Assembly (NCBI RefSeq): GCF_058153355.1
Contig: NZ_CM177019.1
Length of the DNA stretch: 64,000 nt
Reading direction: 5' to 3' (one strand)
The number at the start of each line of letters is the position of its first letter. Position 1 is the first letter of the stretch. The position numbers were made by a program, and so were the translations under genes. Positions 12,160 through 63,411 of this stretch are shown one piece after another. The notes below the pieces were generated by a model that did no database searches, had not been told where the DNA came from, and worked only from the letters and a program-made list of their open reading frames with translations.

Positions 12160-13407
<1,248 letters not shown>

Positions 13408-13502
13408 CATGCCTGCAATCTGGGAAACCGGGGTAGAAAAAAACTTGCAGGCCATAACAGTATCTACGCAGCTCCTGCAATATATTGAATTTTCATGCTT
13501 TT

Positions 13503-22079: not shown

Positions 22080-23618
22080 ATGGCTTTTGCCTCATTAATT
22101 GAACGCCAGCGCATTCGCCTGCTGCTGGCGTTATTATTCGGTGCCTGCGGAACGCTGGCCTTCTCTCCTTACGATGTCTGGCCTGCGGCGATTATTTCGC
22201 TGATGGGACTTCAGGCGCTCACCTTTAACCGCCGTCCACTCCAGTCTGCCTCTATTGGCTTTTGCTGGGGATTTGGCCTGTTTGGCAGCGGTATTAACTG
22301 GGTCTATGTCAGCATCGCGACCTTTGGCGGAATGCCTGGCCCGGTTAACATCTTCCTGGTGGTGCTGCTGGCGGCGTATTTGTCGCTGTATACCGGACTG
22401 TTTGCTGGCGTGCTGTCGCGTCTGTGGCCGAAAACCACCTGGCTGCGCGTGGCGATTGCCGCCCCTGCTCTCTGGCAAGTGACCGAGTTTCTGCGCGGTT
22501 GGGTGCTGACTGGCTTCCCGTGGTTGCAGTTCGGCTATAGCCAGATTGACGGTCCGTTAAAAGGACTGGCACCGATAATGGGCGTGGAAGCCATTAACTT
22601 CCTGCTGATGATGGTAAGCGGCCTGCTGGCACTGGCGTTGGTCAAACGCAACTGGCGTCCGCTGGTGGTGGCCGTCGTGCTGTTTGCCCTTCCCTTCCCG
22701 CTACGTTACATCCAGTGGTTTACCCCGCAACCGGAGAAAACCATTCAGGTTTCGATGGTTCAGGGCGACATTCCGCAATCGCTGAAGTGGGATGAAGGCC
22801 AGCTTCTCAATACGCTGAAGATTTACTACAACGCAACGGCACCGCTGATGGGCAAGTCATCGCTGATTATCTGGCCTGAATCGGCGATAACCGACCTGGA
22901 AATTAATCAGCAGCCGTTCCTCAAAGCACTGGACGGTGAGTTGCGTGATAAAGGTAGCTCGCTGGTCACCGGGATTGTCGACGCGCGTCTCAATAAGCAG
23001 AATCGCTACGATACCTACAACACCATCATCACGCTGGGTAAAGGTGCACCGTATAGCTACGAATCAGCCGATCGCTATAACAAAAACCATCTGGTACCGT
23101 TTGGCGAGTTTGTCCCGCTGGAGTCGATTCTGCGTCCGTTAGCACCGTTCTTTGATCTGCCGATGTCGTCATTCAGCCGTGGACCATATATCCAACCACC
23201 GCTGTCGGTAAATGGTATTGAGCTTACTGCGGCTATTTGCTACGAGATCATTCTCGGCGAGCAAGTGCGCGATAACTTCCGCCCGGATACCGACTATCTG
23301 CTGACTATCTCCAACGATGCGTGGTTTGGTAAGTCTATTGGCCCATGGCAGCACTTTCAGATGGCGCGAATGCGTGCGCTGGAGCTGGCGCGCCCGCTGC
23401 TGCGTAGCACCAACAACGGCATTACGGCGGTGATTGGCCCGCAGGGTGAGATTCAGGCGATGATCCCGCAATTCACCCGCGAGGTGTTGACCACTAATGT
23501 GACGCCGACTACCGGACTCACACCGTACGCACGTACCGGCAACTGGCCGCTGTGGGTACTGACGGCACTGTTTGGTTTTGCCGCTGTGTTGATGAGACTG
23601 CGAGCACGTCAACGTTAA
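22080..23618 (+). CDS. lnt: Apolipoprotein N-acyltransferase Lnt (512 aa)
   Basis: Polytopic N-terminal region plus nitrilase-like domain; correct length. Confidence 0.96.
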
Positions 23619-23722
23619 TGTGAATGATGCACTGGCCAGCAAAATCGCATCATTTTTGCAGGCCAGATAAACTGTTCACACCACATCCGGTATCAACAAA
23701 ACGTACTTTCTCATTGAGCTGT

Positions 23723-23750
23723 GGGGCGTGATTATCATGCCCCTTTTTTT
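23723..23750. terminator. Bidirectional terminator at the convergent 3' ends of lnt and the rhomboid gene
   Basis: GGGGCGTGATTATCATGCCCC hairpin followed by TTTTTTT; overlaps the rhomboid gene stop codon. Confidence 0.6.
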
Positions 23751-25626
23751 ACGGTTCAGGGATACAAGCCACATCGCCATATTGGGGATGCCGAATAATT
23801 GCCTGCGGATCAAGCGAGCGCGTCCTGTCCATTTGGATTAACCCGTTCTTCGCCATAACAAATATCTTTCTACCATCCGCTGAAAAACGAAGATGATTAA
23901 CGTAGCTGGCAGGATAAACGCCAATAATCTGCCCGGCATTAATATTGAGCAGGATGACATAACCTTGCAGGCCATATGACACCAACGCTAAATACTGACC
24001 GTCCGGGCTAATACCCTCAACAGAATAAACGCTCCTGCTACACCATTGCGTCATAATGCTGGCTTGTTGATCCCCTGTGCTTATACGTGAAATCCCCTGA
24101 CTATCGGCAAAAATAACCTCACCATTTTTTGGTCGGAATCCCATCGCAGAAACGACACCACGCGCATCACCTGCGGGAAAGTCTTCTTTCTGATGCGTGA
24201 TGGTATTGATCCGCACGATGTTACCTCTGCCTGCTCCTGGAACCAGTAATGTTTTTTCATCCGGGGAAAGTGCCATAACCCAGGCGCCTGGTTTACCGCT
24301 CGTCCCCGTCCCGTCGTATTTCTCCAGTGCGATATCCGCCACATGCTGATAAGTCACCAGATCAATCGCTGACACACTATTACTGGTGCGATTCATCACC
24401 CAGGCTTTTGTGCCATCACGCGAGAGGATAAGGCTGTCAGGATGGGCGCCGGTGGTAATCGACTGAATAATCTCCCCCGTCGCCACGTTAACGACCGATA
24501 ATGCATTCGCTTCAAATGAAGTCGCATACAGCAACTTTTCATCGGGGCTTAACACCAGCGATCTGACGCCCTGATCTTTACAGCCACCACAATGTTTGAC
24601 TGACTTTTCTTTCGCTATGGGCGCTGTAAAGGTATGCAGGATTTTCTTTTGTCCGAGGTCGAAAACAACAATACTGTTCGTGTTTTCAATTGCGGCATAT
24701 AACGTATTACCATCCCGATTGATCGCCATATCATGGATATCGGCAATCTCAGCGAGCAAATCACCACTGGCCTGTTCACGACTTACCGGAGCGGATAATG
24801 TTTCCCTGAGGGCATTGCGTTCCTCCGCTAACTGCTGCTTTTTATGCCGTCGCTCTTGTTCAATCTCCTGCGGATAAAACTCTTCACGCAGGCTTTGCCT
24901 GACCTGCAAAACTGATTCATCAATCTGCTGCTGCACAAGCCAGATAGCCCCGGTCAGTAGAAGACTACCCGCAACAATAATCCCACCTTCCGTAACGAGC
25001 CGGTTTTGCCCAGATAAACGCGCACTCAGCCAACCCAACGCTCCACCTGCCATCAGGCCGCCAATGTGGCAAGCGTTATCTATTCCTGCTTGCCGGGCAC
25101 CATACAACAGTGTCAGCGCCACCATACCCAACAGAGAAAATACTCGCCGCTGGTTTTTATGGTGTGTACCCGCACCTGAAGAAAGCTGTGTTGCTATCGC
25201 AGCGCCAGCTATTCCCATAATTGCCCCGGATGCCCCAACGCTGATGACTATCTGCTCACTTTCGCGTAACGCATAACAGGCGCTGATGAGCCCACCAAAG
25301 ATGCCGGAGAATAACCAGATAATCAGGAGTCGCCATTTCCCCAGTATCCGTTCCGCCACTGTCCCCACCACCAGGAGTGCAAACATATTCATCAGCAAAT
25401 GGGAAAAACTACTGTGCAGAAAAACACTGCTCAATAAGCGCCAGGGTTCACCCGACAACGTGAGAGAGGCAACGTTAGCGCCGAGATGGATGAGTGCGGA
25501 TTGATCGACTTCTTCATAACTCATCCATTGTGCGAGGTAACAAAATATCCCAACACATAGCGCAAAAAGGATCAGGGTTATTGCGGGTAATTGAACATTT
25601 AACGGCTTAACCGAAGATGCAGACAT
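23749..25626 (-). CDS. Rhomboid-family intramembrane serine protease fused to a C-terminal YVTN-type beta-propeller domain (about 625 aa)
   Basis: ATG at 25626 after AAGGAAG gives MSASSVKPLNV...; rhomboid motifs WRLLSSVFLHSSFSHLLMNM, GASGAIMG (Ser) and ACHIGGLMAG (His); 7th TM helix, coiled-coil linker, then repeated ...LYAAIENTNSIVVFDL / LYATSFEANALSVVNVATG / AWVMNRTSNSVSAIDL blades. Confidence 0.8.
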   Translation of the reverse strand: MSASSVKPLNVQLPAITLILFALCVGIFCYLAQWMSYEEVDQSALIHLGANVASLTLSGEPWRLLSSVFLHSSFSHLLMNMFALLVVGTVAERILGKWRLLIIWLFSGIFGGLISACYALRESEQIVISVGASGAIMGIAGAAIATQLSSGAGTHHKNQRRVFSLLGMVALTLLYGARQAGIDNACHIGGLMAGGALGWLSARLSGQNRLVTEGGIIVAGSLLLTGAIWLVQQQIDESVLQVRQSLREEFYPQEIEQERRHKKQQLAEERNALRETLSAPVSREQASGDLLAEIADIHDMAINRDGNTLYAAIENTNSIVVFDLGQKKILHTFTAPIAKEKSVKHCGGCKDQGVRSLVLSPDEKLLYATSFEANALSVVNVATGEIIQSITTGAHPDSLILSRDGTKAWVMNRTSNSVSAIDLVTYQHVADIALEKYDGTGTSGKPGAWVMALSPDEKTLLVPGAGRGNIVRINTITHQKEDFPAGDARGVVSAMGFRPKNGEVIFADSQGISRISTGDQQASIMTQWCSRSVYSVEGISPDGQYLALVSYGLQGYVILLNINAGQIIGVYPASYVNHLRFSADGRKIFVMAKNGLIQMDRTRSLDPQAIIRHPQYGDVACIPEP

Positions 25627-26081
25627 AAGGTGATTCTTCCTTGAAAAGACAGGTAAAAAAGCATTTTTCCCGTGTGCAGTTATCATCCCGGCAAACGTCC
25701 CATACCGAAAAGTTAACTCTGTCCGAAATATGACTTTTTCAGCCTGAAATTACAATCGTAATTAATTCACCCCTAAGTATTTTTTGGCATGTAAGTTGCT
25801 TTATTTACTGTGTAAGCAATGAAATCAGCCGCAACGCAACCGGGTTGCACCAACACAAATCAGCGGTAGCACCAAAAAGGTGCGGTTTAAGAGTTTTGCT
25901 TCGGAATGGTGCGGCGCATCTCGCAAAAACAAACAATAAAACATCAATATCTTTACATTTAACCAAACTAAATGTTACCTAACAAACACAACACTGCACA
26001 ATAAAGTTGCAGATGATAACAACACAAACACTCACAACGGGTATCCATGCGTTCTTAACGCAGAAGATAAAGGAGTTGGAT

Positions 26082-44585: not shown

Positions 44586-44826
44586 CTTTTCTGTTTTTTT
44601 ACGGGTAAGCCGCAACGACCATTGACAGCCCCGGGCAGGCTGATATTCTCCGCAGCCAGACTTTTTTCGCCAGACACGACTTTGTAGAAATTGTTTTACA
44701 AAAATGGCGATGCAATCTGCGGCGCGGGGTGGGATGATAGCCCACTTTCGAAAGCCGATTCGGCGACAATTGTCCCGAAATCGCCTCTGGTTCAGGTATA
44801 CTGACAGACCATTTTTATCTATTTGA

Positions 44827-45162
<336 letters not shown>

Positions 45163-45165
45163 TGC

Positions 45166-45633: not shown

Positions 45634-45663
45634 TAAGGGAGCTTTGAGTAGAAAACGCAGCGG

Positions 45664-47565: not shown

Positions 47566-47567
47566 TC

Positions 47568-48680
47568 ATGACGGATAATCCGAATAAAAAAACATTCTGG
47601 GATAAAGTCCATCTCGATCCCACAATGCTGCTGATCTTACTGGCATTGCTGGTTTACAGCGCCCTGGTTATCTGGAGCGCCAGCGGTCAGGATATTGGCA
47701 TGATGGAGCGTAAAATAGGCCAAATCGCGATGGGCCTGGTCATCATGGTGGTGATGGCGCAAATTCCTCCACGCGTTTATGAAGGCTGGGCTCCCTATCT
47801 CTACATCATCTGTATTATTTTGCTGGTGGCGGTAGATGCTTTTGGTGCCATCTCTAAAGGCGCTCAACGCTGGCTGGACCTCGGTATCGTTCGTTTTCAG
47901 CCGTCGGAAATTGCCAAAATAGCCGTACCACTGATGGTAGCGCGCTTTATCAACCGCGACGTTTGCCCGCCGTCGTTGAAGAACACAGGCATCGCGCTGG
48001 TGCTGATATTTATGCCCACGCTGCTGGTGGCTGCGCAGCCTGACCTGGGGACATCAATCCTCGTTGCGCTTTCCGGTCTGTTTGTACTGTTCCTCTCTGG
48101 CCTTAGCTGGCGTCTGATTGGCGTCGCAGTAGTGCTGGTGGCGGCGTTCATTCCTATTCTGTGGTTCTTCCTGATGCATGATTACCAGCGCCAGCGCGTA
48201 ATGATGCTCCTGGACCCGGAATCAGACCCACTCGGCGCGGGCTATCATATTATTCAGTCTAAAATTGCTATTGGCTCCGGCGGATTACGCGGCAAAGGCT
48301 GGCTGCACGGTACTCAGTCACAGCTTGAATTTCTCCCCGAACGCCATACTGACTTTATTTTCGCGGTACTGGCGGAAGAGCTGGGATTAGTGGGCATTTT
48401 GATTCTGCTCGCCCTCTACATTCTGCTGATCATGCGCGGGCTGTGGATAGCCGCCAGAGCGCAAACCACCTTTGGTCGCGTCATGGCTGGCGGCTTAATG
48501 CTGATATTATTCGTTTATGTCTTCGTAAATATTGGTATGGTAAGCGGTATTCTGCCGGTTGTAGGGGTTCCGCTCCCACTGGTCAGTTATGGAGGATCGG
48601 CGCTAATTGTGCTGATGGCTGGGTTCGGGATTGTAATGTCAATCCACACCCACAGGAAAATGTTGTCGAAAAGCGTGTAA
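47568..48680 (+). CDS. mrdB: RodA, SEDS-family peptidoglycan polymerase (370 aa)
   Basis: Polytopic SEDS protein immediately downstream of mrdA. Confidence 0.96.
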
Positions 48681-48690
48681 GAGGTGCGCA

Positions 48691-49779
48691 ATGCGTAAGC
48701 AGTGGCTCGGGATCTGCATCGCGGCAGGAATGCTCGCGGCATGTACAAGCGATGATGGTCAGCAACAGACGGTAAGTGTACCGCAGCCTGCGGTATGTAA
48801 CGGCCCCATAGTTGAAATTAGCGGGGCGGACCCGCGTTTCGAACCACTGAACGCGACGGCAAATCAGGATTACCAGCGCGACGGTAAAAGCTACAAAATT
48901 GTGCAGGATCCGTCTCGATTTAGCCAGGCGGGACTGGCGGCAATCTATGATGCCGAACCCGGCAGTAACCTGACGGCCTCTGGCGAAGCTTTCGATCCGA
49001 CACAGCTGACGGCGGCCCATCCAACGCTTCCGATCCCCAGCTACGCCAGAATCACTAACCTGGCTAACGGGCGAATGATCGTGGTGCGCATTAATGATCG
49101 CGGTCCTTACGGCAACGACCGCGTTATTTCGCTTTCTCGCGCAGCAGCTGACCGTCTTAACACGTCAAACAACACCAAAGTTCGTATCGATCCGATTATT
49201 GTCGCCCAGGATGGTTCGCTTTCTGGTCCTGGTATGGCTTGTACCACAGTCGCCAAACAGACTTACGCCCTGCCTGCACCTCCCGATTTAAGCGGCGGCG
49301 CAGGAACAAGTTCAGTGTCTGGCCCGCAGGGTGACATTCTTCCGGTCAGTAATTCGACGCTAAAAAGCGAAGATCCGACTGGCGCGCCGGTAACCAGCAG
49401 CGGTTTTCTGGGCGCACCAACGACCTTAGCGCCTGGTGTACTGGAAGGCAGCGAACCGACACCTGCGCCACAGCCCGTTGTTACAGCTCCGGCGACAACG
49501 CCTGCAACCTCGCCTGCAATGGTGACACCGCAAGCCGCCTCGCAAAGCGCTAGCGGCAACTTTATGGTGCAAGTTGGGGCCGTAAGCGATCAGGCGCGTG
49601 CGCAACAGTACCAACAGCAACTGGGACAGAAGTTCGGCGTCCCCGGTCGCGTAACTCAAAATGGCGCGGTCTGGCGGATCCAGCTTGGCCCATTCGCCAG
49701 CAAAGCCGAAGCCAGTACCTTGCAGCAACGTTTGCAAACCGAAGCCCAATTACAGTCATTTATTACCACCGCGCAGTAG
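48691..49779 (+). CDS. rlpA: RlpA, septal lipoprotein with DPBB and C-terminal SPOR domain (362 aa)
   Basis: MRKQWLGICIAAGMLAACT lipobox; Pro/Thr-rich linker; C-terminal SPOR-like region. Confidence 0.95.
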   Translation: MRKQWLGICIAAGMLAACTSDDGQQQTVSVPQPAVCNGPIVEISGADPRFEPLNATANQDYQRDGKSYKIVQDPSRFSQAGLAAIYDAEPGSNLTASGEAFDPTQLTAAHPTLPIPSYARITNLANGRMIVVRINDRGPYGNDRVISLSRAAADRLNTSNNTKVRIDPIIVAQDGSLSGPGMACTTVAKQTYALPAPPDLSGGAGTSSVSGPQGDILPVSNSTLKSEDPTGAPVTSSGFLGAPTTLAPGVLEGSEPTPAPQPVVTAPATTPATSPAMVTPQAASQSASGNFMVQVGAVSDQARAQQYQQQLGQKFGVPGRVTQNGAVWRIQLGPFASKAEASTLQQRLQTEAQLQSFITTAQ

Positions 49780-49785
49780 CGTAAA

Positions 49786-49853
49786 GCAGGCATCTGATGT
49801 GTCAATTTCTGTAAATGACGTTAACAAAGTCACGCGGAAAGTCAGATGCCTGC
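49786..49853. repeat. 12-bp perfect inverted repeat separated by 44 bp in the rlpA-dacA intergenic region
   Basis: GCAGGCATCTGA (49786-49797) and TCAGATGCCTGC (49842-49853). Confidence 0.4.
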
Positions 49854-49918
49854 CGGTAGTGCATTTGCTATAGTAGGGCACTTTTTTTAATTCCATCACG
49901 GATGTCGTAGTTCAGACC

Positions 49919-51130
49919 ATGAATACCATTTTTTCCGCTCGTATCATGAAGCGCCTGGCGCTCACCACGGCTCTTTGCACAGCCTTTATCTCTGCTGCAC
50001 ATGCCGATGACCTGAATATCAAAACTATGATCCCGGGTGTACCGCAGATCGATGCGGAGTCCTACATCCTGATTGACTATAACTCGGGCAAAGTGCTCGC
50101 CGAACAGAACGCAGATGTCCGCCGCGATCCTGCCAGTCTGACCAAAATGATGACCAGTTACGTTATCGGCCAGGCAATGAAAGCCGGTAAATTTAAAGAA
50201 ACTGATTTAGTCACCATCGGCAACGACGCATGGGCCACCGGTAACCCGGTATTTAAAGGTTCTTCGCTGATGTTCCTCAAACCGGGCATGCAGGTTCCGG
50301 TTTCTCAGCTGATCCGCGGTATTAACCTGCAATCGGGTAACGATGCTTGCGTCGCCATGGCCGATTTTGCCGCTGGTAGCCAGGACGCTTTTGTTGGCTT
50401 GATGAACAGCTACGTTAACGCACTGGGCCTGAAAAACACTCACTTCCAGACCGTGCACGGTCTCGACGCTGACGGTCAGTACAGCTCCGCGCGAGATATG
50501 GCGCTGATCGGCCAGGCGTTGATCCGTGACGTACCGAATGAATACTCGATCTATAAAGAAAAAGAATTTACGTTTAACGGTATTCGCCAGCTGAACCGTA
50601 ACGGCCTGTTATGGGATAACAGCCTGAATGTCGACGGCATCAAAACCGGACACACTGACAAAGCAGGTTACAACCTTGTTGCTTCTGCGACTGAAGGCCA
50701 GATGCGCTTGATCTCTGCGGTGATGGGCGGACGTACTTTTAAAGGCCGTGAAGCCGAAAGTAAAAAACTGCTAACCTGGGGCTTCCGTTTCTTCGAAACC
50801 GTTAACCCACTGAAAGTAGGTAAAGAGTTCGCCTCTGAACCGGTTTGGTTTGGTGATTCTGATCGCGCTTCGTTAGGTGTTGATAAAGACGTGTACCTGA
50901 CCATTCCGCGTGGCCGCATGAAAGATCTGAAAGCCAGCTATGTGCTGAACAGCAGTGAATTGCATGCGCCGCTGCAAAAGAATCAGGTCGTCGGTACTAT
51001 CAACTTCCAGCTTGATGGCAAAACGATCGAACAACGCCCGCTGGTTGTGCTGCAAGAAATCCCGGAAGGCAACTTCTTCGGCAAAATCATTGATTACATT
51101 AAGTTAATGTTCCATCACTGGTTTGGTTAA
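49919..51130 (+). CDS. dacA: D-alanyl-D-alanine carboxypeptidase PBP5 (403 aa)
   Basis: Signal peptide, SLTK active-site motif, SGN and KTG motifs, C-terminal amphipathic anchor. Confidence 0.96.
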
Positions 51131-51182
51131 AAATCGAACACTTGAAAGTGTGATTTCCGCCCCCATATACTAAGCATCAGTA

Positions 51183-51216
51183 AAAAACTCCCGCCTTCTG
51201 GCGGGAGTTGCTATTT
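51183..51216 (+). terminator. Candidate terminator downstream of dacA
   Basis: CTCCCGCCTTCTGGCGGGAG hairpin followed by TTGCTATTT. Confidence 0.5.
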
Positions 51217-51239
51217 AATTACGTTACGCCGGAGCTGAC

Positions 51240-51503
51240 ATGAAAACCAAACTTAACGAACTGCTTGAATTCCCTACTCCTTTTACTTACAAAGTTATGG
51301 GGCAGGCGTTACCTGAGCTGGTTGATCAGGTGGTTGAAGTGGTACAGCGCCATGCGCCAGGTGACTACACCCCAACGGTAAAACCAAGCAGCAAAGGCAA
51401 CTACCACTCGGTATCTATCACTATCAACGCCACTCATATTGAGCAGGTTGAAACACTGTATGAAGAACTGGGCAAAATCGATATTGTCCGCATGGTTCTG
51501 TAA
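51240..51503 (+). CDS. ybeD: YbeD, UPF0250 protein (87 aa)
   Basis: [31 protein letters not shown]...; upstream of lipB. Confidence 0.93.
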
Positions 51504-51603
51504 CTCGCGTATTCTTTACCCGGCCCCTGGTCGGGTAACTCCCCTCTCCTCGCTGTGATATACTTTTCCCCCACTTTTACTCATTCTCCACGGAGATGCC
51601 GTT

Positions 51604-52245
51604 TTGTATCAGGATAAAATTCTTGTCCGCCAGCTCGGTCTTCAGCCTTACGAGCCAATCTCCCAGGCTATGCATGAATTCACCGATACCCGCGATGAAA
51701 GTACTCTTGATGAAATCTGGCTGGTCGAGCACTATCCGGTATTCACCCAAGGGCAGGCAGGAAAAGCGGAGCACATTTTAATGCCGGGCGATATTCCGGT
51801 GATCCAAAGCGATCGCGGTGGGCAGGTGACTTATCACGGGCCGGGGCAACAGGTGATGTATGTGTTGCTTAACCTGAAACGCCGTAAACTCGGTGTGCGT
51901 GAACTGGTGACCTTGCTCGAGCAAACAGTGGTGAATACCCTGGCTGAACTGGGTATAGAAGCGCATCCTCGGGCTGACGCGCCTGGTGTCTATGTCGGGG
52001 AAAAGAAAATTTGCTCACTGGGTTTACGTATTCGGCGCGGTTGTTCATTCCACGGTCTGGCATTAAACGTCAATATGGATCTTTCGCCATTTTTACGTAT
52101 TAATCCTTGTGGGTATGCCGGAATGGAAATGGCTAAAATATCACAATGGAGACCCGAAGCGACAACTAATAATATTGCACCGCGTTTGCTAGAAAATATT
52201 TTAGTGCTACTAAACAATCCCGACTTCGAATATATTACCGCTTAA
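51604..52245 (+). CDS. lipB: Octanoyltransferase LipB (213 aa)
   Basis: TTG start; (M)[25 protein letters not shown]...; catalytic Cys region KKICSLG. Confidence 0.93.
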
Positions 52246-52504
52246 TTATATACATCAATGGCCCAAATTACACTGGGTCATTACTCATAATACCTGCTAA
52301 TGCTTTACTTCTCCTTCGCGTTTGTATATTTTCTTTATCACTTGCAGAAATGCGATGCAATGCTTCGCTCCGTAACTCACCCCATTGATTAACTTATTGA
52401 AATAGTTGACTATGGTGAGCAAAAGCGTTCCATTCAAATTAGATATAAGATTATTGTAATTTTTTTAAATATTATTTTTCCATGAATAAAATTGGAGTAA
52501 GTGC

Positions 52505-53458
52505 GTGGATAGTAATAATCAAATTGAACCCTGTTTAAGCAGAAAGTCGTCAGAAGGTAAACCACAAATATTTACAACCTTACGAAATATTGATCTTAAC
52601 CTTCTAACTATTTTTGAAGCTGTATATGTACATAAAGGGATCGTTAATGCAGCGAAAGTGCTTAATCTGACCCCCTCGGCAATCAGTCAGTCTATTCAGA
52701 AACTGCGCGTTATATTCCCTGACCCATTGTTTATTCGCAAAGGCCAGGGGGTCACTCCTACCGCATTTGCGATGCATCTACATGAGTATATCAGTCAGGG
52801 CCTTGAATCCATTCTCGGCGCGCTGGATATCGAAGGAACCTATGATAAGCAACGAACGATAACTATCGCGACCACCCCCTCGGTCGGAGCCCTGGTCCTT
52901 CCAGTCATCTATCGCGCGATTAAAACTCATTATCCGCAGCTTTTACTGCGCAACCCCCCTATCAGCGACGCGGAAAGCCAACTCAGTCAGTTTCAAACCG
53001 ATCTCATCATTGATAACATGTTCTGCACCAATCGTACGGTACAACATCATGTTCTGTTCACCGACAATATGGTGTTAATTTGCCGCGAGGGAAATTCGCT
53101 ACTCTCCTTAGAAGATGACAGAGAGACTATCGAAAACGCTGCGCATATACTCCTGTTACCGGAAGGGCAAAATTTCAGCGGTCTGCGGCAGAGAGTTCAA
53201 GAGATGTTTCCGGACCGGCAAATCAGTTTCACCAGCTACAACATTTTGACAATCGCTGCACTGGTTGCCAACAGTGACATGTTAGCGATTATTCCCAGCC
53301 GTTTTTATAACCTGTTTAGCCGTTGCTGGCCGCTGGAAAAACTGCCTTTTCCGTCCTTAAATGAGGAGCAAGTAGATTTCTCTATCCACTACAACAAATT
53401 CAGCCTGCGAGATCCCATCCTGCACGGGGTAATAGATGTTATCCGTAATGCATTTTGA
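52505..53458 (+). CDS. ybeF: YbeF, LysR-type transcriptional regulator (317 aa)
   Basis: GTG start; N-terminal HTH (LNLLTIFEAVYVHKGIVNAAKVLNLTPSAISQSIQKLR). Confidence 0.88.
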   Translation: MDSNNQIEPCLSRKSSEGKPQIFTTLRNIDLNLLTIFEAVYVHKGIVNAAKVLNLTPSAISQSIQKLRVIFPDPLFIRKGQGVTPTAFAMHLHEYISQGLESILGALDIEGTYDKQRTITIATTPSVGALVLPVIYRAIKTHYPQLLLRNPPISDAESQLSQFQTDLIIDNMFCTNRTVQHHVLFTDNMVLICREGNSLLSLEDDRETIENAAHILLLPEGQNFSGLRQRVQEMFPDRQISFTSYNILTIAALVANSDMLAIIPSRFYNLFSRCWPLEKLPFPSLNEEQVDFSIHYNKFSLRDPILHGVIDVIRNAF

Positions 53459-53666
53459 AAAAGTATTGTTACAGCCAGATCACAGCGAAGAACGAAAAAA
53501 TGGCACAATCCAACAACAATTTTACATTTTCGCGACCGCTTTGGCTGCTTTCAGGTCCGTTTCAATGATATACTGCCAGTCGTTAATTCAAAAATAGTTG
53601 ATAATTACAACAATCTATTGAATTGAAACGCTTTCCTTCGTAATTCGCAACTGGAACACGCACGCT

Positions 53667-54632
53667 ATGAGTAAACCCATTGTGATGGAACGCGGTGTTA
53701 AATACCGCGATGCCGATAAGATGGCCCTTATCCCGGTTAAAAACGTGGCAACAGAGCGCGAAGCCCTGCTGCGCAAGCCGGAATGGATGAAAATCAAGCT
53801 TCCAGCGGACTCTACACGTATCCAGGGCATCAAAGCCGCAATGCGCAAAAATGGCCTGCATTCTGTCTGCGAGGAAGCCTCCTGCCCTAACCTGGCGGAA
53901 TGCTTCAACCACGGCACAGCAACGTTTATGATCCTCGGCGCTATTTGTACCCGCCGTTGTCCGTTCTGTGACGTTGCCCACGGTCGCCCGGTAGCTCCGG
54001 ATGCCAATGAACCAGTGAAACTGGCGCAGACCATTGCCGATATGGCGCTGCGTTATGTGGTTATCACCTCCGTTGACCGTGATGACCTGCGCGATGGCGG
54101 TGCCCAGCACTTTGCGGATTGCATTACTGCCATTCGGGAAAAAAGCCCGCAAATCAAAATTGAAACTCTGGTGCCGGATTTCCGCGGTCGTATGGATCGT
54201 GCTCTGGATATTCTGACCGCCACACCACCAGATGTGTTCAACCATAACCTGGAAAACGTACCGCGTATTTACCGTCAGGTACGGCCTGGTGCAGATTACA
54301 ACTGGTCGCTGAAGCTGCTGGAACGCTTTAAAGAAGCGCATCCGGAAATCCCGACCAAGTCTGGTCTGATGGTGGGTCTGGGTGAAACCAATGAAGAAAT
54401 TATTGAGGTAATGCGCGACCTGCGCCGTCATGGTGTGACGATGCTAACGCTGGGGCAATATTTGCAGCCAAGCCGCCATCACCTGCCGGTTCAACGTTAC
54501 GTTAGCCCGGATGAGTTCGACGAAATGAAAGCCGAAGCGCTGGCGATGGGCTTTACCCATGCTGCATGCGGTCCGTTTGTCCGCTCGTCTTACCACGCCG
54601 ATTTGCAGGCGAAAGGGATGGAAGTTAAGTAA
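53667..54632 (+). CDS. lipA: Lipoyl synthase LipA (321 aa)
   Basis: Radical-SAM CPFCDV plus auxiliary cluster cysteines ([12 protein letters not shown]). Confidence 0.97.
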
Positions 54633-54663
54633 TCCTGTAATAATTACTTACATCTGTCTGATA

Positions 54664-54694
54664 AAAAACCCGCTTTTTGAAGCGGGTTTTTTGT
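54664..54694. terminator. Bidirectional rho-independent terminator between lipA and tatE
   Basis: AAAAAACCCGCTTTTTGAAGCGGGTTTTTTG. Confidence 0.7.
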
Positions 54695-54732
54695 ATCGAA
54701 CAAGATATTGAGGGAGCGTCCTGCTCGCCACG

Positions 54733-54936
54733 TCACTCTTTATGAGAGAGCTTTTCAGCCTGAAGATCAACGTCTGCGCCTTTTTTCGCCGCAGCATCGT
54801 CATCATTCATCGCCTTCTTGAACCCTTTAATGGCCGCTCCAAGGTCTCCGCCCAGCGTACGTAACTTCTTAGTCCCAAACAGCAGAACGACCAGCGCCGC
54901 AACTACCAGCAGTTTGGTAATACTAATCTCCCCCAT
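54733..54936 (-). CDS. tatE: Twin-arginine translocase subunit TatE (67 aa)
   Basis: [33 protein letters not shown]... Confidence 0.93.
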
Positions 54937-55064
54937 AGATACCTTCTTGACATATAACCGGCAACAGAACGCGCCTTAAAAACCAGAGAATATTAACGGT
55001 CATTCGACGCGCGCACACAATAGCAATCTGTAACAAGGTGAATCAAGCACCGAGTAAAAAAACA

Positions 55065-55853
55065 TCATAATAATTGTGGCGGCGCAAAACGACGGTTGTT
55101 TAAGACGGGCAGTTGCGCGCGCACCTGACGCACACGTTCGGGCGTCACTTCCGCCATAATGAGTGCAGGCATTTCTGACGCTGCCGCAATGGTGACGCCA
55201 AAGGGATCTATAATCCGGCTTTGCCCGATATTTTTGTTCCCGCACTCCCCCGCCGCCACCATATAACAGGTGGTATCCAGCGCACGAGCGGCAAGCAACG
55301 TTGACCAGTGATGCTCTTTGAGCGGCCCGCGAACCCAGGCGGCAGGAAGTACCAGGATTTCAGCTCCCTGTAATGCCTGTGCCAGCGCCAGCTCTGGAAA
55401 GCGTAAGTCATAACAGGTCATCAGACCGACCTTCATCCCTTCCACCTCCAGTAACGGAGCTATTTCATTACCAGCATCAACATGGCGTGATTCCTGAATG
55501 GCAAATGCATCATAGAGATGCAGTTTGGCATAACGGGCGACGATGTTTCCTGCCTGTAGCGCCACCAGCATATTCCATGCGCGCCCCGGCGTTGAAGGAA
55601 CATGAATCGTCAGAATTGTCGTCATCATGTTACGTTTACTTTCTCGCCGTAAACGTCCGAGGAATTCGCCTTCCAGCAGCTGTGCTGATTTAACCGATAG
55701 ATCTGCATCATGATCATCACGCGCCAACAATGCTTCCGGCAGGACAAACAGCGAAACGTCGTTTTCCGCCGCCTGCGCCATCAACGAGGCACAAATCTCA
55801 GCGTTCTTTTCCCACACAGATGTAACAGCAAACTGTCCTGCGGCAACCAGCAT
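55065..55853 (-). CDS. ybeM: YbeM, nitrilase-superfamily (C-N hydrolase) protein, apparently intact (262 aa)
   Basis: ATG at 55853 after AGGAGGAGGTG gives [10 protein letters not shown]...; uninterrupted nitrilase-like ORF with catalytic-Cys region ([12 protein letters not shown]). Confidence 0.85.
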
Positions 55854-55948
55854 TGCCACCTCCTCCTGTCAGAGTCGTAAAATTCGCCAACGGCGATTAT
55901 TCGGCGTTACACTTATCACTCATACAAATCAAATAGCAGGATTTTGCA

Positions 55949-56332
55949 GTGTTACAACTTCTTTTAGCAGTTTTTATTGGCGGTGGTACGGGAAGCGTGG
56001 CGAGATGGCTGTTAAGTATGCGATTTAACCCGCTGCATCAGGCGATTCCGATGGGGACGCTGGCTGCAAACCTGATTGGGGCATTCATCATAGGAATGGG
56101 ATTCGCCTGTTTTAGCAGGATGACGAACATTGATCCAGTGTGGAAAGTATTAATCACCACCGGATTTTGTGGCGGTCTAACAACCTTCTCAACATTTTCG
56201 GCAGAAGTGGTGTTTTTGTTACAAGAGGGCCGCTTTGGCTGGGCATTACTGAACGTTTTCGTCAACCTTCTGGGGTCTTTTGCCATGACCGCACTGGCTT
56301 TCTGGCTGTTTTCGGCCTCAACCGCACACTAA
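55949..56332 (+). CDS. crcB: Fluoride channel CrcB/FluC (127 aa)
   Basis: GTG start; four-TM protein [20 protein letters not shown]... Confidence 0.92.
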
Positions 56333-56337
56333 AGACC

Positions 56338-56367
56338 AAAAAAAACCCGCTGATTAAGCGGGTTTTG
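56338..56367. terminator. Bidirectional terminator between crcB and cspE
   Basis: AAAAAAACCCGCTGATTAAGCGGGTTTTGAATT. Confidence 0.7.
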
Positions 56368-56385
56368 AATTCTTGCTGACGTATC

Positions 56386-56595
56386 TTACAGAGCGATTAC
56401 GTTTGCAGCAGAAGGGCCTTTGGCACCGTTAGTGATTTCGAACTCTACGCGCTGACCTTCAGCAAGAGTTTTAAAACCATTAGTCTGGATTGCAGAGAAG
56501 TGTACGAACACGTCTTTGCTGCCGTCTTCCGGAGTAATGAAACCGAATCCTTTGGACTCATTAAACCACTTAACGTTACCTTTAATCTTAGACAT
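56386..56595 (-). CDS. cspE: Cold-shock-domain protein CspE (69 aa)
   Basis: [37 protein letters not shown]... (RNP1/RNP2 motifs). Confidence 0.95.
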
Positions 56596-56769
56596 CAAAA
56601 TTACCTTTACATGAAAAATAGACACAAATGCTGTGTCGGTTACCAGTACACCAATTGTGGTACGCTTTGTCCAGTGCAACTTTACTAAAAAGTGATAAAA
56701 GTCGCGTTATTTTTGATGTTAATTATTTTACTCATTGATTTTAAAGAAGTTACTAAAATTTCATTTGTC

Positions 56770-57330
56770 TCAAAACTGAAAGCGCATCCAGGCAAAGTAC
56801 ACATTGCCATTGTTATAGGTACCCGGAATGTAGGTCATCTGAAAAGTCACTGGACCATAACCCACAGAGGCCAATGGCAGTAGAACCGGGAGAGGGATGT
56901 AATTCCAGTTATCGCGTGCCGTTACGCCAGCGGTGAATCCCAGTCCTAAATGAAAATTTTCATCCGCCAGCGGTCGCCAGGTACTTTCCCATCCGTATCC
57001 GGCAATCGGTTCCCATTTGTTCCACGAGTCCTTAAATGCCATGGCATACAGGCCATGCCAGTTTCCTTTTTCATCCCAACGCGACTGACCAAAACCGCCC
57101 CCCCACGGTCGCTCGTTATAGCGATCGGTTTTTTCTTTGTCGTAAGCGAAACGAGCATGCCAGGTGATGGCAGGAATATATAAATCATAATGTTCAGGCT
57201 GTTGCCAGGTTTGTGTAATATTTTCTCCAAACGTTGTCATCCACTCATCTGCGTTAGCTAAAACTTTACCAACGCTGATTAACTGAATAAAAACAAAGGA
57301 AAATATAGAGACATATTTACTCACGTTCAT
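56770..57330 (-). CDS. pagP: Lipid A palmitoyltransferase PagP/CrcA (186 aa)
   Basis: [30 protein letters not shown]... signal peptide and outer-membrane beta-barrel. Confidence 0.93.
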
Positions 57331-57919
57331 TTGTGACCATAAAACATTTATCAAAAATCTACTATTAGCATAGCAAAGCTACAATTAACATAACCTTAAT
57401 AGCCCCAACATAAAGAATAATCTGAATAGCTGCTCTATTTATTTCCGCTTGTTTAAGTTAAATATTTCCGCGCATCGATTAAAGATGATGCGTCGTTTTC
57501 TGCGATGGGAATAGTCAAAAAAGAAAAACCAAGTCTTTTTTGATGACAAAATGCAATCAAGGAAAAATTATTTTATTTTTTAACTAGATACAACAATCAT
57601 CTTAACGAAGTATATAATATATATCGTCAACCCATGCTCATGGTAGATTATTTTATGAGCACACAACCGCAGCTAACACCATTGCAATTAACAAATTTGC
57701 ATCAATCCACCATCAATTTACACACATTATTATGTGATAATTGCCAACCGCTAAATATGCGTTTTGTTATCTATGTATAAAAACAGCAACTTCAATGTCT
57801 TAATGGCAGTTTTTCTTGATTTTAATCAGCATTCACCGCCAATTTATTGGGCATATTTTTTTCCTTAAGCTTTAGGAATTTTTTATTATTTACTTTGGGG
57901 CCTGGAGACAGGAAAAATT

Positions 57920-59305
57920 ATGCTGACATTCATTGAACTCCTTATTGGGGTTGTGGTTATTGTGGGTGTAGCTCGCTACATCATTAAAGGGTATTCCGCC
58001 ACTGGCGTGTTATTTGTCGGTGGCCTGTTATTGCTGATTATCAGTGCCATTATGGGGCACAAAGTGTTACCGTCCAGCCAGGCTTCAACAGGCTACAGCG
58101 CCACGGATATCGTTGAATACGTTAAAATATTGCTAATGAGCCGCGGCGGCGACCTCGGCATGATGATTATGATGCTGTGTGGCTTTGCCGCTTACATGAC
58201 CCATATCGGCGCGAATGATATGGTGGTCAAGCTGGCGTCAAAACCATTGCAGTATATTAACTCCCCTTACCTGCTGATGATTGCCGCCTATTTTGTCGCC
58301 TGTCTGATGTCTCTGGCCGTCTCTTCCGCAACCGGTCTGGGTGTTTTGCTGATGGCAACCCTGTTTCCGGTGATGGTAAACGTTGGTATCAGCCGTGGTG
58401 CAGCTGCTGCTATTTGTGCCTCCCCGGCGGCGATTATTCTCGCACCGACTTCAGGGGATGTGGTGCTGGCGGCGCAGGCTTCCGAAATGTCGCTGATTGA
58501 CTTCGCCTTCAAAACGACGCTGCCTATCTCAATTGCTGCAATTATCGGCATGGCGATCGCCCACTTCTTCTGGCAACGTTATCTGGATAAAAAAGAGCAC
58601 ATCTCTCATGAAATGTTAGATGTCAGTGAAATCACCACCACTGCTCCTGCGTTTTATGCCATTTTGCCGTTCACGCCGATCATCGGAGTGCTGATTTTTG
58701 ACGGCAAATGGGGGCCGCAATTACACATCATCACTATTCTGGTGATTTGTATGCTGATTGCCTCCATTCTGGAGTTCATCCGCAGCTTTAATACCCAGAA
58801 AGTGTTCTCGGGCCTGGAAGTGGCTTATCGCGGGATGGCAGATGCGTTTGCTAACGTGGTGATGCTGCTGGTTGCCGCTGGGGTATTCGCTCAGGGGCTT
58901 AGCACCATCGGCTTTATTCAAAGTCTGATTTCTATCGCCACTTCGTTTGGTTCGGCGAGTATCATCCTGATGCTGGTATTGGTGATCCTGACAATGCTGG
59001 CGGCAGTCACGACCGGTTCAGGCAATGCGCCGTTTTATGCGTTTGTTGAGATGATCCCGAAACTGGCGCACTCTTCCGGCATTAACCCGGCGTATTTGAC
59101 TATCCCAATGCTGCAGGCGTCAAACCTCGGTCGTACCCTGTCACCCGTTTCTGGCGTAGTCGTTGCGGTTGCCGGGATGGCGAAAATCTCACCATTTGAA
59201 GTCGTAAAACGCACCTCGGTGCCGGTGCTTGTTGGGCTGGTGATTGTTATCGTTGCTACAGAGCTGATGGTGCCAGGAACGGCAGCCGCGGTCACAGGCA
59301 AGTAA
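57920..59305 (+). CDS. dcuC: Anaerobic C4-dicarboxylate transporter DcuC (461 aa)
   Basis: Polytopic DcuC-family protein of correct length. Confidence 0.93.
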   Translation: MLTFIELLIGVVVIVGVARYIIKGYSATGVLFVGGLLLLIISAIMGHKVLPSSQASTGYSATDIVEYVKILLMSRGGDLGMMIMMLCGFAAYMTHIGANDMVVKLASKPLQYINSPYLLMIAAYFVACLMSLAVSSATGLGVLLMATLFPVMVNVGISRGAAAAICASPAAIILAPTSGDVVLAAQASEMSLIDFAFKTTLPISIAAIIGMAIAHFFWQRYLDKKEHISHEMLDVSEITTTAPAFYAILPFTPIIGVLIFDGKWGPQLHIITILVICMLIASILEFIRSFNTQKVFSGLEVAYRGMADAFANVVMLLVAAGVFAQGLSTIGFIQSLISIATSFGSASIILMLVLVILTMLAAVTTGSGNAPFYAFVEMIPKLAHSSGINPAYLTIPMLQASNLGRTLSPVSGVVVAVAGMAKISPFEVVKRTSVPVLVGLVIVIVATELMVPGTAAAVTGK

Positions 59306-59313
59306 ATAGTCAT

Positions 59314-59340
59314 GCCGGAGGCAAGCTTCCTCCGGCTTTA
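59314..59340. terminator. Bidirectional terminator between dcuC and dpiA
   Basis: GCCGGAGGCAAGCTTCCTCCGGC hairpin followed by TTTATC. Confidence 0.55.
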
Positions 59341-59345
59341 TCATG

Positions 59346-60026
59346 TCACCCACTGTGGTATATGCGTTGCGGTCTGCCAACTTTGCCGTGAACAATTTCA
59401 GCAATAATCAGATGGCGGCTGGCGCAATATTCAAGATAACGTCTGGCAGTGGTGCGGCTGATAGTCAGTGCCTGCGCCACCGTTTCTGCCGTATGTTGCA
59501 CACCAGGCTCTTTAAACAGTTTTCGCACCGCGTTTAGCGTCAAGGGGTCAATGCCGGTCGGCAGTTCGTCTTTGGGTTCACCGCGAGCATAGGCATTAAA
59601 CATCTCATCGATTTGCTTCTGGCTGGCGCTATCAATACTTTCCAGCATATGTTTACGCTGGCGGAAACGGGTTAGCGTTTGCCCCAGCCGTTCATAGGCA
59701 ATTGGCTTAATGAGATAATCAAATACACCACAACGTACGGCTTCAGACACCGTTTCCATATCACTGGCTGCAGTGGTAAACACCACGTCGCCGGGATAAT
59801 GCGCCTGCACCAGTTCATGCAGTAAATTAATCCCTCTACCGTCAGGAAGATAGTTATCGAGCAAGATTAGCCCCGGCTTAAAACGCTCGATCATCATTCG
59901 GGCCTGCGCCAGGTTTCCCGCCAGTAATATCTGACTGAATCCGGGAATGTGACGAATATATTCCGCATGCATCTCTGCCAGCGGCGTTTCGTCCTCAACG
60001 ATCAATAGGGTTAATGGAGCTGTCAT
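59346..60026 (-). CDS. dpiA: DpiA/CitB response regulator (226 aa)
   Basis: Receiver domain (LIVEDETPLAEMH..., conserved Asp) plus C-terminal HTH. Confidence 0.92.
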   Translation of the reverse strand: MTAPLTLLIVEDETPLAEMHAEYIRHIPGFSQILLAGNLAQARMMIERFKPGLILLDNYLPDGRGINLLHELVQAHYPGDVVFTTAASDMETVSEAVRCGVFDYLIKPIAYERLGQTLTRFRQRKHMLESIDSASQKQIDEMFNAYARGEPKDELPTGIDPLTLNAVRKLFKEPGVQHTAETVAQALTISRTTARRYLEYCASRHLIIAEIVHGKVGRPQRIYHSG

Positions 60027-61653
60027 TAGGTTTCACTTTCGGAATATAGATTGAAAATAAGGTACCGCAGGGATCATTATCTTCGAGAGTGATAACACCA
60101 CCGCAGCGCGTTACGTAGCTGGCAATCAAGTACAACCCAATGCCATGTTCGCCGGGCTCGTCAGCACGCGTACTGACACCCTGCTCAAATATTTTGTCTC
60201 GTAGAGACTCTGGAACGCCGCAGCCCTGATCGGCGACTTCAATCACCACATCATCGCCTTCATCGCTGAGGAATAATTCAACGATCTTGTTTCCTTCATC
60301 GCTACGCAGGCTGGCTTCGAAGGCGTTATCAAGTAAATTGCCAATAATGGCTGCAAACTCGGTGCTGTCCAGTCCTGGCGGCAGTTGCGAAAGCTGACTT
60401 CCGGGGACGATGACCATTTTTAGCCCCAGTTCGCGGGCGCGCTGCACTTTACCAAAAAGCAGCCCCGCCACCTGGCGATCGGCAAACGCCTCGCGCAGGC
60501 TATCAATAAGCTGTTGCTGGGCCTGAGACTCCCCCTGCACCATCGCCAACACGCGATCATACTCTTTCATCTGCAACAGACCATTGAGCGTCGACATCCA
60601 ATTGAGATGCTCGTGTCGCAATGTGCGCAGGCTCTCGACGTATTGTTTAATTTGCGTCAGTTGTGCATTGAGGGTGGATATTTCGTCTTTACTACGAAAG
60701 CTGATAATGGCCCCCAGCAAATCATCACCAGAACGAATAGCTTCCCGGTTGGCAATAACGCTCAGACCGTTAAAGTTCGCCACCACATCCTGACGTTTTT
60801 CATCAATCTGTTCGGTAAAGAAATCGGCGGGCCTGACCACTTCAGCAATGGGTTTACCCAACCATTGCCGTCCGGGGGAACTTAGCCCCAGCATCTTTCT
60901 TGCGTTACGATTGATGGCGGTAATGTAACCGTGCGGATCCACCGCAATCAGCCCTTCATAAACCGAACTAAACAGCGCCTCTTGCTGACGGACCACGCGT
61001 GCGATTTGCTTTGGCTCCATGCCCATCATTTGCCGACGGATATGCGCGGCCAGGAACCACGACAGCAACATCAGAATCCCTAACAGCACGACAAACACGC
61101 CAGCCATCGGTAATAAAAACTCAGCCCGCCAGCTATCGATTTTACTCACCAGGTAGCCAATCGACACCACGCCGATGACTTTTCCATCGTCATCAAAGAT
61201 TGGCGTTTTGGCACGCATCGCCATGCCAATTGACCCTTTCCCGGTGATAAAGTAGCTCTCCCCTTTCTCCAGCGCGCCCGGTTTGGTGAACTGCATAGGA
61301 TAACCAATTTTCTCCGGATTAGGATGGTAAAGACGAATCGAGTGCCGATCGCCAATCACCACATAATCGAAATCAGTATCTCTTTGTAATTTGTCAGCGA
61401 TGGTCGCCAACCTCTTGTAGTCACGCGTTTTCACTGCGCTGATGATACTGTCATTAGAAGCAATAATTTTTGCCTGATTCATTGCCATGTCGCGCACATG
61501 AAGCGTTAAATAGTCCTCAAAACTGGCCGTAAAATATTGCGCCAGGGCTGCAATGACAAATATTGAGAACACCAGAATCAGCAAAAAGATACGCAGCGGA
61601 AATGCCAGTCTTTGGAAAAATGCAAACTGTTTATTCTCGTTAAGCTGCAACAT
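59995..61653 (-). CDS. dpiB: DpiB/CitA citrate-sensing histidine kinase (552 aa)
   Basis: ATG at 61653 after AAGGAAAAC gives MLQLNENKQFAFFQRL...; periplasmic PAS, H-box (LRHEHLNW) and HATPase; 3' end overlaps dpiA by 32 nt. Confidence 0.9.
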   Translation of the reverse strand: MLQLNENKQFAFFQRLAFPLRIFLLILVFSIFVIAALAQYFTASFEDYLTLHVRDMAMNQAKIIASNDSIISAVKTRDYKRLATIADKLQRDTDFDYVVIGDRHSIRLYHPNPEKIGYPMQFTKPGALEKGESYFITGKGSIGMAMRAKTPIFDDDGKVIGVVSIGYLVSKIDSWRAEFLLPMAGVFVVLLGILMLLSWFLAAHIRRQMMGMEPKQIARVVRQQEALFSSVYEGLIAVDPHGYITAINRNARKMLGLSSPGRQWLGKPIAEVVRPADFFTEQIDEKRQDVVANFNGLSVIANREAIRSGDDLLGAIISFRSKDEISTLNAQLTQIKQYVESLRTLRHEHLNWMSTLNGLLQMKEYDRVLAMVQGESQAQQQLIDSLREAFADRQVAGLLFGKVQRARELGLKMVIVPGSQLSQLPPGLDSTEFAAIIGNLLDNAFEASLRSDEGNKIVELFLSDEGDDVVIEVADQGCGVPESLRDKIFEQGVSTRADEPGEHGIGLYLIASYVTRCGGVITLEDNDPCGTLFSIYIPKVKPNDSSINPIDR

Positions 61654-61754
61654 TGTTTTCCTTGCGGGTTGTCCCGAGCCTCTTTGACGGATGTAATTAA
61701 AATGTTGAATCAAAATACATAGATATTAAATATAATCGTGGCAAATTTTATTCA

Positions 61755-61787
61755 TTAAATCAATTAAATCAATTAAATCACTTAAAC
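61755..61787. repeat. Tandem AT-rich decamer repeats in the dpiB-citC control region
   Basis: TTAAATCAATTAAATCAATTAAATCACTTAAA, about three copies of TTAAATCAAT. Confidence 0.5.
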
Positions 61788-62041
61788 CTGCGGGTCATTT
61801 CGTAATTACATTAATTAAAAAACTTAAAACCATTAAATAAATAAAAAACCACTAACTCTATGTGAAATAAATCAAAATTTCACGCTGCAATACTCCTTAG
61901 GATGTATAGCGAAAGGAGAAAAAGATATACCTCGATCGCCCCCCTTTCTCCCAAGTGAAAATAAAAGGTTATCAATTTGCAACATCGAACAACATTCGTT
62001 GCAAATCGATAACAACATGCACCTTCAGGATACTATTTATT

Positions 62042-63100
62042 ATGTTCGGCAATGATATTTTCACCCGTGTAAAACGTTCAGAAAATAAAAAAATGGCGGA
62101 AATCGCCCAATTCCTGCATGAAAATGATTTGAGCGTTGACACCACAGTCGAAGTATTTATTACCGTAACCCGCGATGAAAAGCTTATCGCGTGCGGTGGA
62201 ATTGCCGGAAATATTATTAAATGCGTTGCTATCAGTGAATCCGTTCGCGGTGAAGGACTGGCGCTGACATTAGCCACTGAATTGATAAACCTCGCCTATG
62301 AGCGGCACAGCACGCATCTGTTTATTTATACCAAAACCGAATACGAGGCGCTGTTCCGCCAGTGCGGTTTTTCCACGCTGACCAGTGTACCCGGCGTGAT
62401 GGTGCTGATGGAAAACAGCGCCACGCGACTGAAACGCTATGCCGAATCGCTGAAAAAATTTCGTCATCCAGGGAACAAGATTGGCTGCATTGTGATGAAC
62501 GCCAATCCCTTTACGAATGGTCACCGTTATCTGATTCAACAGGCTGCAGCACAGTGCGACTGGTTGCACCTGTTTTTAGTTAAAGAAGATTCTTCACGCT
62601 TTCCCTATGAAGACCGGCTGGATCTGGTGTTAAAAGGCACCGCCGATATTCCACGCCTGACTGTGCATCGCGGCTCCGAATACATCATCTCCCGCGCTAC
62701 GTTCCCTTGCTACTTCATTAAAGAACAGAGCGTCATTAACCATTGTTACACCGAAATTGATCTGAAGATTTTCCGTCAGTACCTCGCTCCCGCGCTGGGT
62801 GTAACTCACCGCTTTGTCGGTACTGAACCCTTTTGTCGCGTTACCGCCCAGTACAACCAGGATATGCGCTACTGGCTGGAAACGCCGACTATCTCCGCAC
62901 CGCCCATCGAACTGGTTGAAATTGAGCGGCTGCGTTACCAGGAGATGCCGATATCCGCTTCCCGGGTACGTCAACTGCTGGCGAAAAACGATCTCACGGC
63001 TATCGCGCCGCTGGTCCCTGCAGTCACGCTGCATTATTTGCAGAACCTGCTTGAGCACTCCCGCCAGGACGCGGCAGCTCGTCAAAAGACCCCCGCATGA
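62042..63100 (+). CDS. citC: [Citrate (pro-3S)-lyase] ligase CitC (352 aa)
   Basis: MFGNDIFTRVKRSENKKMAEIAQFLHENDL... from ATG at 62042; GNAT-like N-terminus and nucleotidyltransferase region. Confidence 0.9.
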   Translation: MFGNDIFTRVKRSENKKMAEIAQFLHENDLSVDTTVEVFITVTRDEKLIACGGIAGNIIKCVAISESVRGEGLALTLATELINLAYERHSTHLFIYTKTEYEALFRQCGFSTLTSVPGVMVLMENSATRLKRYAESLKKFRHPGNKIGCIVMNANPFTNGHRYLIQQAAAQCDWLHLFLVKEDSSRFPYEDRLDLVLKGTADIPRLTVHRGSEYIISRATFPCYFIKEQSVINHCYTEIDLKIFRQYLAPALGVTHRFVGTEPFCRVTAQYNQDMRYWLETPTISAPPIELVEIERLRYQEMPISASRVRQLLAKNDLTAIAPLVPAVTLHYLQNLLEHSRQDAAARQKTPA

Positions 63101-63114
63101 GAAACAGGTGAAAA

Positions 63115-63411
63115 ATGAAAATAAACCAGCCCGCCGTTGCAGGCACCCTTGAGTCTGGGGATGTGATGATACGCATCGCCCCACTCGATACGCAGGATAT
63201 CGACCTGCAAATCAACAGCAGCGTTGAAAAACAGTTTGGTGATGCCATTCGCACCACCATTCTGGACGTTCTCGCCCGCTACAACGTGCGCGGCGTACAG
63301 CTGAATGTCGATGACAAAGGCGCACTGGACTGCATTTTACGTGCACGACTGGAAGCCCTGCTGGCACGCGCCAGCGGTATCCCGGCTCTGCCATGGGAGG
63401 ATTGCCAATGA
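63115..63411 (+). CDS. citD: Citrate lyase acyl carrier protein (gamma subunit) CitD (98 aa)
   Basis: [25 protein letters not shown]...; Ser in ESGDV region is the prosthetic-group attachment site. Confidence 0.93.

Follow-up and report, generated by a model that had tools for sequence, protein, structure and literature searches.

An intact ybeM gene, predicted to encode a deaminated-glutathione amidase, in a non-K-12 Escherichia coli strain

The ybeM gene of the strain studied here is very probably a normal, intact chromosomal gene of a non-K-12 Escherichia coli, encoding a cytoplasmic nitrilase-superfamily enzyme of 262 aa that belongs to the Nit1 branch and is predicted to be a deaminated-glutathione amidase. 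It was analyzed in its context within the window, by which we mean the whole 64,000-nucleotide stretch of contig NZ_CM177019.1 (RefSeq assembly GCF_058153355.1). The window carries the ordinary form of a gene that is already known and annotated, which confirms a non-K-12 E. coli origin and in itself matters little.

The coding sequence, 262 codons followed by TGA, occupies positions 55065..55853 on the minus strand, as supported by the ORF list, the PF00795 and NF033621 matches and identity to a RefSeq protein. In the six-frame ORF list it appears as 55065..55859 (minus strand), where 264 aa are counted from a GTG further upstream; translation from the ATG at 55853, in the same frame, gives the 262-aa product, and this ATG is the RefSeq start of the identical protein WP_001305561.1 (strain 2013C-4282). 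The exact YbeM sequence was found on at least 1000 public contigs, named 'deaminated glutathione amidase [Escherichia coli]'. Ahead of the start codon the minus strand reads C-AGGAGGAGGTGG-CA-ATG at 55868..55851, so that the Shine-Dalgarno region AGGAGGAGGTGG lies at 55856..55867 (minus strand); its proximal AGGAGG is 5 nt from the ATG, a strong Shine-Dalgarno sequence at optimal spacing. Alignment showed that this region contains (AGG)3, as against (AGG)2 in MG1655 and most E. coli, a 3-nt indel, and the exact (AGG)3 60-mer was retrieved from 846 of 5423 complete E. coli genomes. The first-pass annotation had described a continuous 262-aa C-N hydrolase ORF with a good ribosome-binding site, located between tatE and crcB. 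The ORF list and its coordinates, the Pfam search and the minus-strand sequence agree with that description, and the ribosome-binding site that it quoted, AGGAGGAGGTG, is present at 55867..55857 (minus strand). The minus strand of the gene was missing from the description, the coordinates of which were right. A simple sigma-70 consensus scan of the 95-nt spacer between ybeM and crcB found no promoter and is uninformative.

According to the ORF list and annotation, ybeM is followed by the co-oriented tatE (54733..54936, minus strand) after a 128-nt spacer, and the TatE encoded in the window is 100% identical to that of MG1655; lipA (53667..54632, plus strand; ORF list) lies beyond tatE. On the upstream side, the fluoride channel gene crcB (55949..56332, plus strand) is divergent, 95 nt of intergenic DNA (55854-55948) lying between it and ybeM. 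The gene of the window therefore occupies the orthologous position in the order crcB / ybeM / tatE / lipA, which was conserved in nearly all Enterobacteriaceae loci examined. YbeM evolves faster than its neighbours, identity between Escherichia and Enterobacter being ~72% for YbeM, ~85% for CrcB, ~91% for TatE and ~97% for LipA. An Rfam scan of positions 54500-56500 gave just weak terminator-like matches and the cspE 5' UTR; it returned no fluoride-riboswitch match before crcB at E<=1 and nothing bearing on ybeM. The match in the cspE 5' region (56338-56500) was to the cspA thermoregulator, at 68.4 bits below the gathering score of 78, and was clipped by the search range.

Membership of the nitrilase superfamily was found with the Pfam model CN_hydrolase (PF00795), which matched residues 3-245 at E=4.2e-41 and 141.4 bits against a gathering score of 23.2. 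NCBIfam NF033621 ('deaminated glutathione amidase', de_GSH_amidase) was the sole NCBI curated model whose cutoff YbeM passed, with 451.5 bits against 355 over model positions 2-260 of 260. With these two matches a chance ORF can be discounted. YbeM scored below the cutoffs of the YafV-type amidohydrolase/omega-amidase model NF007757 (61.5 bits, cutoff 249), of the aguB model (63.3 bits, cutoff 410) and of NF043013 (82.7 bits, cutoff 500), a Yersinia-type deaminated glutathione amidase model that represents another subfamily with the same name. The nearest solved sequences were the Nit domain of Caenorhabditis elegans NitFhit (1.7e-29) and yeast Nit2 (1.1e-26). An AF2 model built on 22 orthologues (pLDDT 89.2, pTM 0.89) had yeast Nit2 as its best PDB fold match in Foldseek (TM 0.87-0.90), including the C169S variant with a bound endogenous peptide-like ligand, and its similarity to many solved superfamily members (TM 0.84-0.90) predicts an alpha-beta-beta-alpha sandwich. 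The catalytic residues were located by alignment with NitFhit (1EMS), the triad of which we take to be residues 54, 127 and 169. Glu40 (codon 55734..55736), Lys110 (55524..55526) and the nucleophile Cys147 (TGT, 55413..55415), all on the minus strand, align with Glu54, Lys127 and C169, respectively, the cysteine lying in the motif MTCYD at residues 145-149. E40, K110, E121 and C147 were invariant in the orthologue alignments (25 and 22 orthologues), down to 49% identity.

We infer the substrate and chemistry of YbeM from homology, the NCBI curated family name and secondary citations. In the proposed mechanism, Cys147 would attack the amide carbonyl of deaminated glutathione (N-(4-oxoglutaryl)-Cys-Gly), with Glu40 acting as base and the intermediate being stabilized by Lys110 and probably by Glu121; a thioester acyl-enzyme would form and would then be hydrolysed, yielding 2-oxoglutarate and Cys-Gly. 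The conversion of deaminated glutathione to these two products is classified as EC 3.5.1.128. Such a reaction would provide metabolite repair and salvage, deaminated glutathione being a by-product of transaminases that act on glutathione. A passage of PMC7041631 that cites Peracchi et al. describes the enzyme as recycling a transaminase side-product, and hydrolysis of deaminated glutathione is also the reaction assigned to eukaryotic Nit1, yeast Nit2 and the NitFhit Nit domain (PMC7041631, PMC9913352).

The pseudogene status of ybeM in K-12 is already known and stands in the reference annotation: NC_000913.3 lists the 788-nt MG1655 gene (b4581, 658031..658818) as a pseudogene, and in a second K-12 genome the gene bears the PGAP label 'deaminated glutathione amidase, frameshifted'. 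The first-pass annotation had described ybeM as annotated as a frameshifted pseudogene in MG1655 and proposed alignment with that strain as a check; when the alignment was run, the K-12 gene proved neither identical nor intact. In a three-way alignment, the single length difference within the coding sequence was a G missing from K-12 at CDS nt 200. This base is present in the window at 55654, within codon 67 (CGT, Arg; 55653..55655, minus strand), and the gene is accordingly not the K-12-type pseudogene allele. The K-12 frame reaches a stop after 75 aa, consisting of 66 native residues and LYGEKVNVT, a product that keeps Glu40, loses Lys110 and Cys147, and scores 82.8 bits with NF033621 (cutoff 355). 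Apart from the deleted G, the window and MG1655 genes differ at 12 of 789 coding positions. Two K-12-specific changes, V33A and V37A, are both non-synonymous, and the window copy has neither; V37, which is three residues away from Glu40, was invariant outside K-12 in the orthologue alignments. As substitutions of this kind are expected once a gene is already dead, V33A and V37A are consistent with decay after inactivation. The K-12 pseudogene has served as a neutral integration site (PMC4788846). With this predicted metabolite-repair enzyme missing from K-12, studies of glutathione damage and repair in K-12 would amount to work in a natural null background.

How common each allele is was assessed by querying 5,426 complete E. 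coli genomes with a K-12 60-mer taken across the deletion. The exact deletion 60-mer was present in 860 of 5423 genomes; in the other 4563 (~84%) the deletion was absent and the best match fell in the 95-99% band, most of the listed rows having 98.4% over a 61-base target, the value expected with one extra base. A second 60-mer search found the K-12-specific haplotype in 365 of the 860 deletion genomes. With its 28-nt word limit this haplotype probe matched K-12-like records only and so counts K-12 derivatives, not a full census; the rows sampled among the 365 were mostly K-12 laboratory derivatives (MG1655, W3110, BW25113, DH1, NEB10-beta, MC4100). Deletion carriers outside K-12 number about 495 genomes, wild isolates included, or about one in ten (~10%) of the non-K-12 complete genomes. 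In the two wild isolates that were checked, the human isolate 300709 (Mozambique) and the pig isolate JP538 (Japan), ybeM is annotated as 'frameshifted' and equals the intact UMNK88 allele apart from the missing G, which indicates that the deletion arose on a natural haplotype and is older than laboratory K-12. The deletion at nt 200 is thus not specific to K-12. Intact ybeM, for its part, is the majority state and hence ordinary: with ~84% of complete genomes intact, it excludes K-12 and says little more. Since loss is tolerated in nature, with 860 genomes frameshifted, the contribution of ybeM to fitness is small.

Among the genomes inspected, BHUCD02 (NZ_CM183444.1, 'human stool') has a size of 4,641,766 bp and carries ybeM at 658062, nearly the length and coordinates of MG1655. 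Its ybeM is intact; of the alleles compared, that of E. coli B is nearest to it at the DNA level. This genome may be a reference-guided or mixed assembly.

The origin of the strain outside K-12 is shown more directly by its identity to MG1655, by an IS621 element and by the absence of IS5D than by the intact ybeM. Compared with MG1655 645-713 kb, the window shows 95.8-97.7% identity in collinear blocks. IS5D of MG1655 (687851..689045) has no counterpart in the window, its absence at ~25978-25982 being precise. A 1278-bp IS110-like element of the IS621 family (12186..13463) is inserted between asnB and umpH relative to MG1655, with its junction at MG1655 699496/699497; it encodes a 326-aa IS110-family transposase (12378..13358), matches annotations of 'IS110-like element IS621 family transposase' and has a best match of 99.6% in complete genomes. 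Between lnt and gltI, adjacent to the site without IS5D, lies a 2.2-kb segment absent from MG1655 (23603..25836), within which a gene at 23749..25686 (minus strand) gives a 645-aa product that combines a rhomboid domain at its N terminus with a beta-propeller at its C terminus. A non-K-12 background had already been proposed from the IS621, the rhomboid gene, the missing IS5 and the intact ybeM, and this holds, the 12 substitutions in ybeM and the overall identity to MG1655 being further evidence for it. Over the 20 kb of positions 44000-64000, identity was at most 99.2% to any of the 5,426 complete RefSeq E. coli genomes, which means that the lineage of the strain is not closely represented among them.

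To place the intact allele in evolutionary context, we scanned one genome per bacterial species and took the best 80 loci, which included no Salmonella; E. albertii, Citrobacter, Enterobacter, Klebsiella and others therefore took the place of the Salmonella ybeM with which the first-pass annotation had proposed an alignment. Each of the 80 contained one uninterrupted ybeM match, and in 77 the match covered the whole protein (query residues 1-261 or 1-262). The remaining three were from Alsobacter (residues 3-261), Pseudonocardia (1-256) and Enterobacter sp. kpr-6 (1-262, in 264 codons). Among the species were cryptic Escherichia clades, E. whittamii, E. albertii, Citrobacter, Leclercia, Kosakonia, Enterobacter, Klebsiella, Kluyvera, Pantoea and Erwinia, and full-length orthologues of 261-264 aa in conserved synteny were found elsewhere in Escherichia and in many Enterobacteriaceae. 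Nei-Gojobori estimates of dN/dS for ybeM against five other Escherichia lineages ranged from 0.04 to 0.10. Together, the uninterrupted syntenic orthologues and these dN/dS values show that the intact allele is ancestral and has been under purifying selection. The suggestion made in the first-pass annotation, that the strain keeps the ancestral functional allele, is upheld in this form, the orthologues speaking for 'ancestral' and the invariant triad together with dN/dS pointing to 'functional'.

Several other readings of these data were weighed. The gene might seem intact through an error of sequencing or assembly, or might be a K-12-type pseudogene that has secondarily reverted, and single-base indels are indeed a common class of error; nothing specific favours this reading, to which we attach a negligible probability. 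The 4563 independent complete genomes that match as expected with the base present, the 12 other differences from MG1655, the identity of the protein to a RefSeq protein and the G-containing frame in outgroup species all stand against it, and on these grounds both artefact and reversion from the K-12 allele were rejected. A gene intact in sequence could also be effectively silent or decaying, so that 'functional allele' would be an overstatement. The persistence of the frameshift in the roughly 495 non-K-12 genomes, wild isolates among them, would fit such a state, as would the fact that no consensus promoter emerged from our scan; Salmonella, too, has a ybeM, a translational reporter of which showed very weak expression (bioRxiv 10.1101/2020.09.09.289983). 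However, the low dN/dS and an active site that is invariant over deep divergence show long-term purifying selection, and the Shine-Dalgarno sequence is strong and optimally spaced. In uropathogenic CFT073, where ybeM is intact, the transcript has been detected and is regulated, the gene being an NsrR ChIP target that is down-regulated under NO (PMC5320621). We consider a silent or decaying gene very unlikely; the strong Shine-Dalgarno sequence and the published CFT073 data suggest that ybeM is expressed in this strain.

It is also conceivable that YbeM is an intact and active enzyme with a different substrate, either an omega-amidase acting on 2-oxoglutaramate (Nit2/YafV-type) or a hydrolase of small amides, in which case its current name would be an over-annotation. 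The fold and triad are common to all branch-10 amidases of the nitrilase superfamily, and mouse Nit2 and a plant N-carbamoylputrescine amidase were likewise strong fold matches of the YbeM model. Against this, the only curated cutoff passed was that of NF033621, the YafV-type and aguB models having failed, and the best matches in both sequence and fold (NitFhit and yeast Nit2) belong to the Nit1 branch; a different substrate seems improbable to us. Omega-amidase identity in particular was rejected, given 61.5 bits against 249 for NF007757 and 451.5, above 355, for NF033621. A more speculative proposal concerns the polymorphisms of ybeM, namely the 1-bp deletion (~10% of non-K-12 complete genomes), the non-synonymous decay in K-12 and the (AGG)2/(AGG)3 Shine-Dalgarno variant (~16% of genomes). 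These might stem from selection on the capacity to repair deaminated glutathione, not from neutral drift, with loss being adaptive or conditionally neutral in a commensal, phylogroup-A-like lineage and the window representing a high-expression intact haplotype, a scenario that we regard as unlikely. We retain the reading of ybeM as a normal intact gene for a Nit1-branch enzyme.

Among known systems, the closest is E. coli YbeM itself: the protein of the window is identical to WP_001305561.1, with the same length, start codon and genomic position, and differs by H124R only from WP_000959109.1, the allele of E. coli B, UMNK88 and BHUCD02. For these known E. coli YbeM proteins the commoner Shine-Dalgarno sequence is (AGG)2, whereas that of the window is (AGG)3. 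The MG1655 pseudogene (b4581) shares the locus and orientation of the gene in the window. More distantly, yeast Nit2 (4H5U, 4HG3, 4HGD) and the Nit domain of NitFhit (1EMS) have the same Glu-Lys-Cys triad as YbeM and the fold predicted for it, but the identity of eukaryotic Nit1, yeast Nit2 and NitFhit to YbeM is only 28-30%, and YbeM, at 262 aa as compared with about 300 for Nit proteins and 440 for the Fhit fusion, is without the Fhit partner domain. E. coli YafV and the mammalian Nit2 omega-amidase belong to the same superfamily branch and would share their catalytic chemistry with YbeM, but differ from it in locus and in their substrate, 2-oxoglutaramate.
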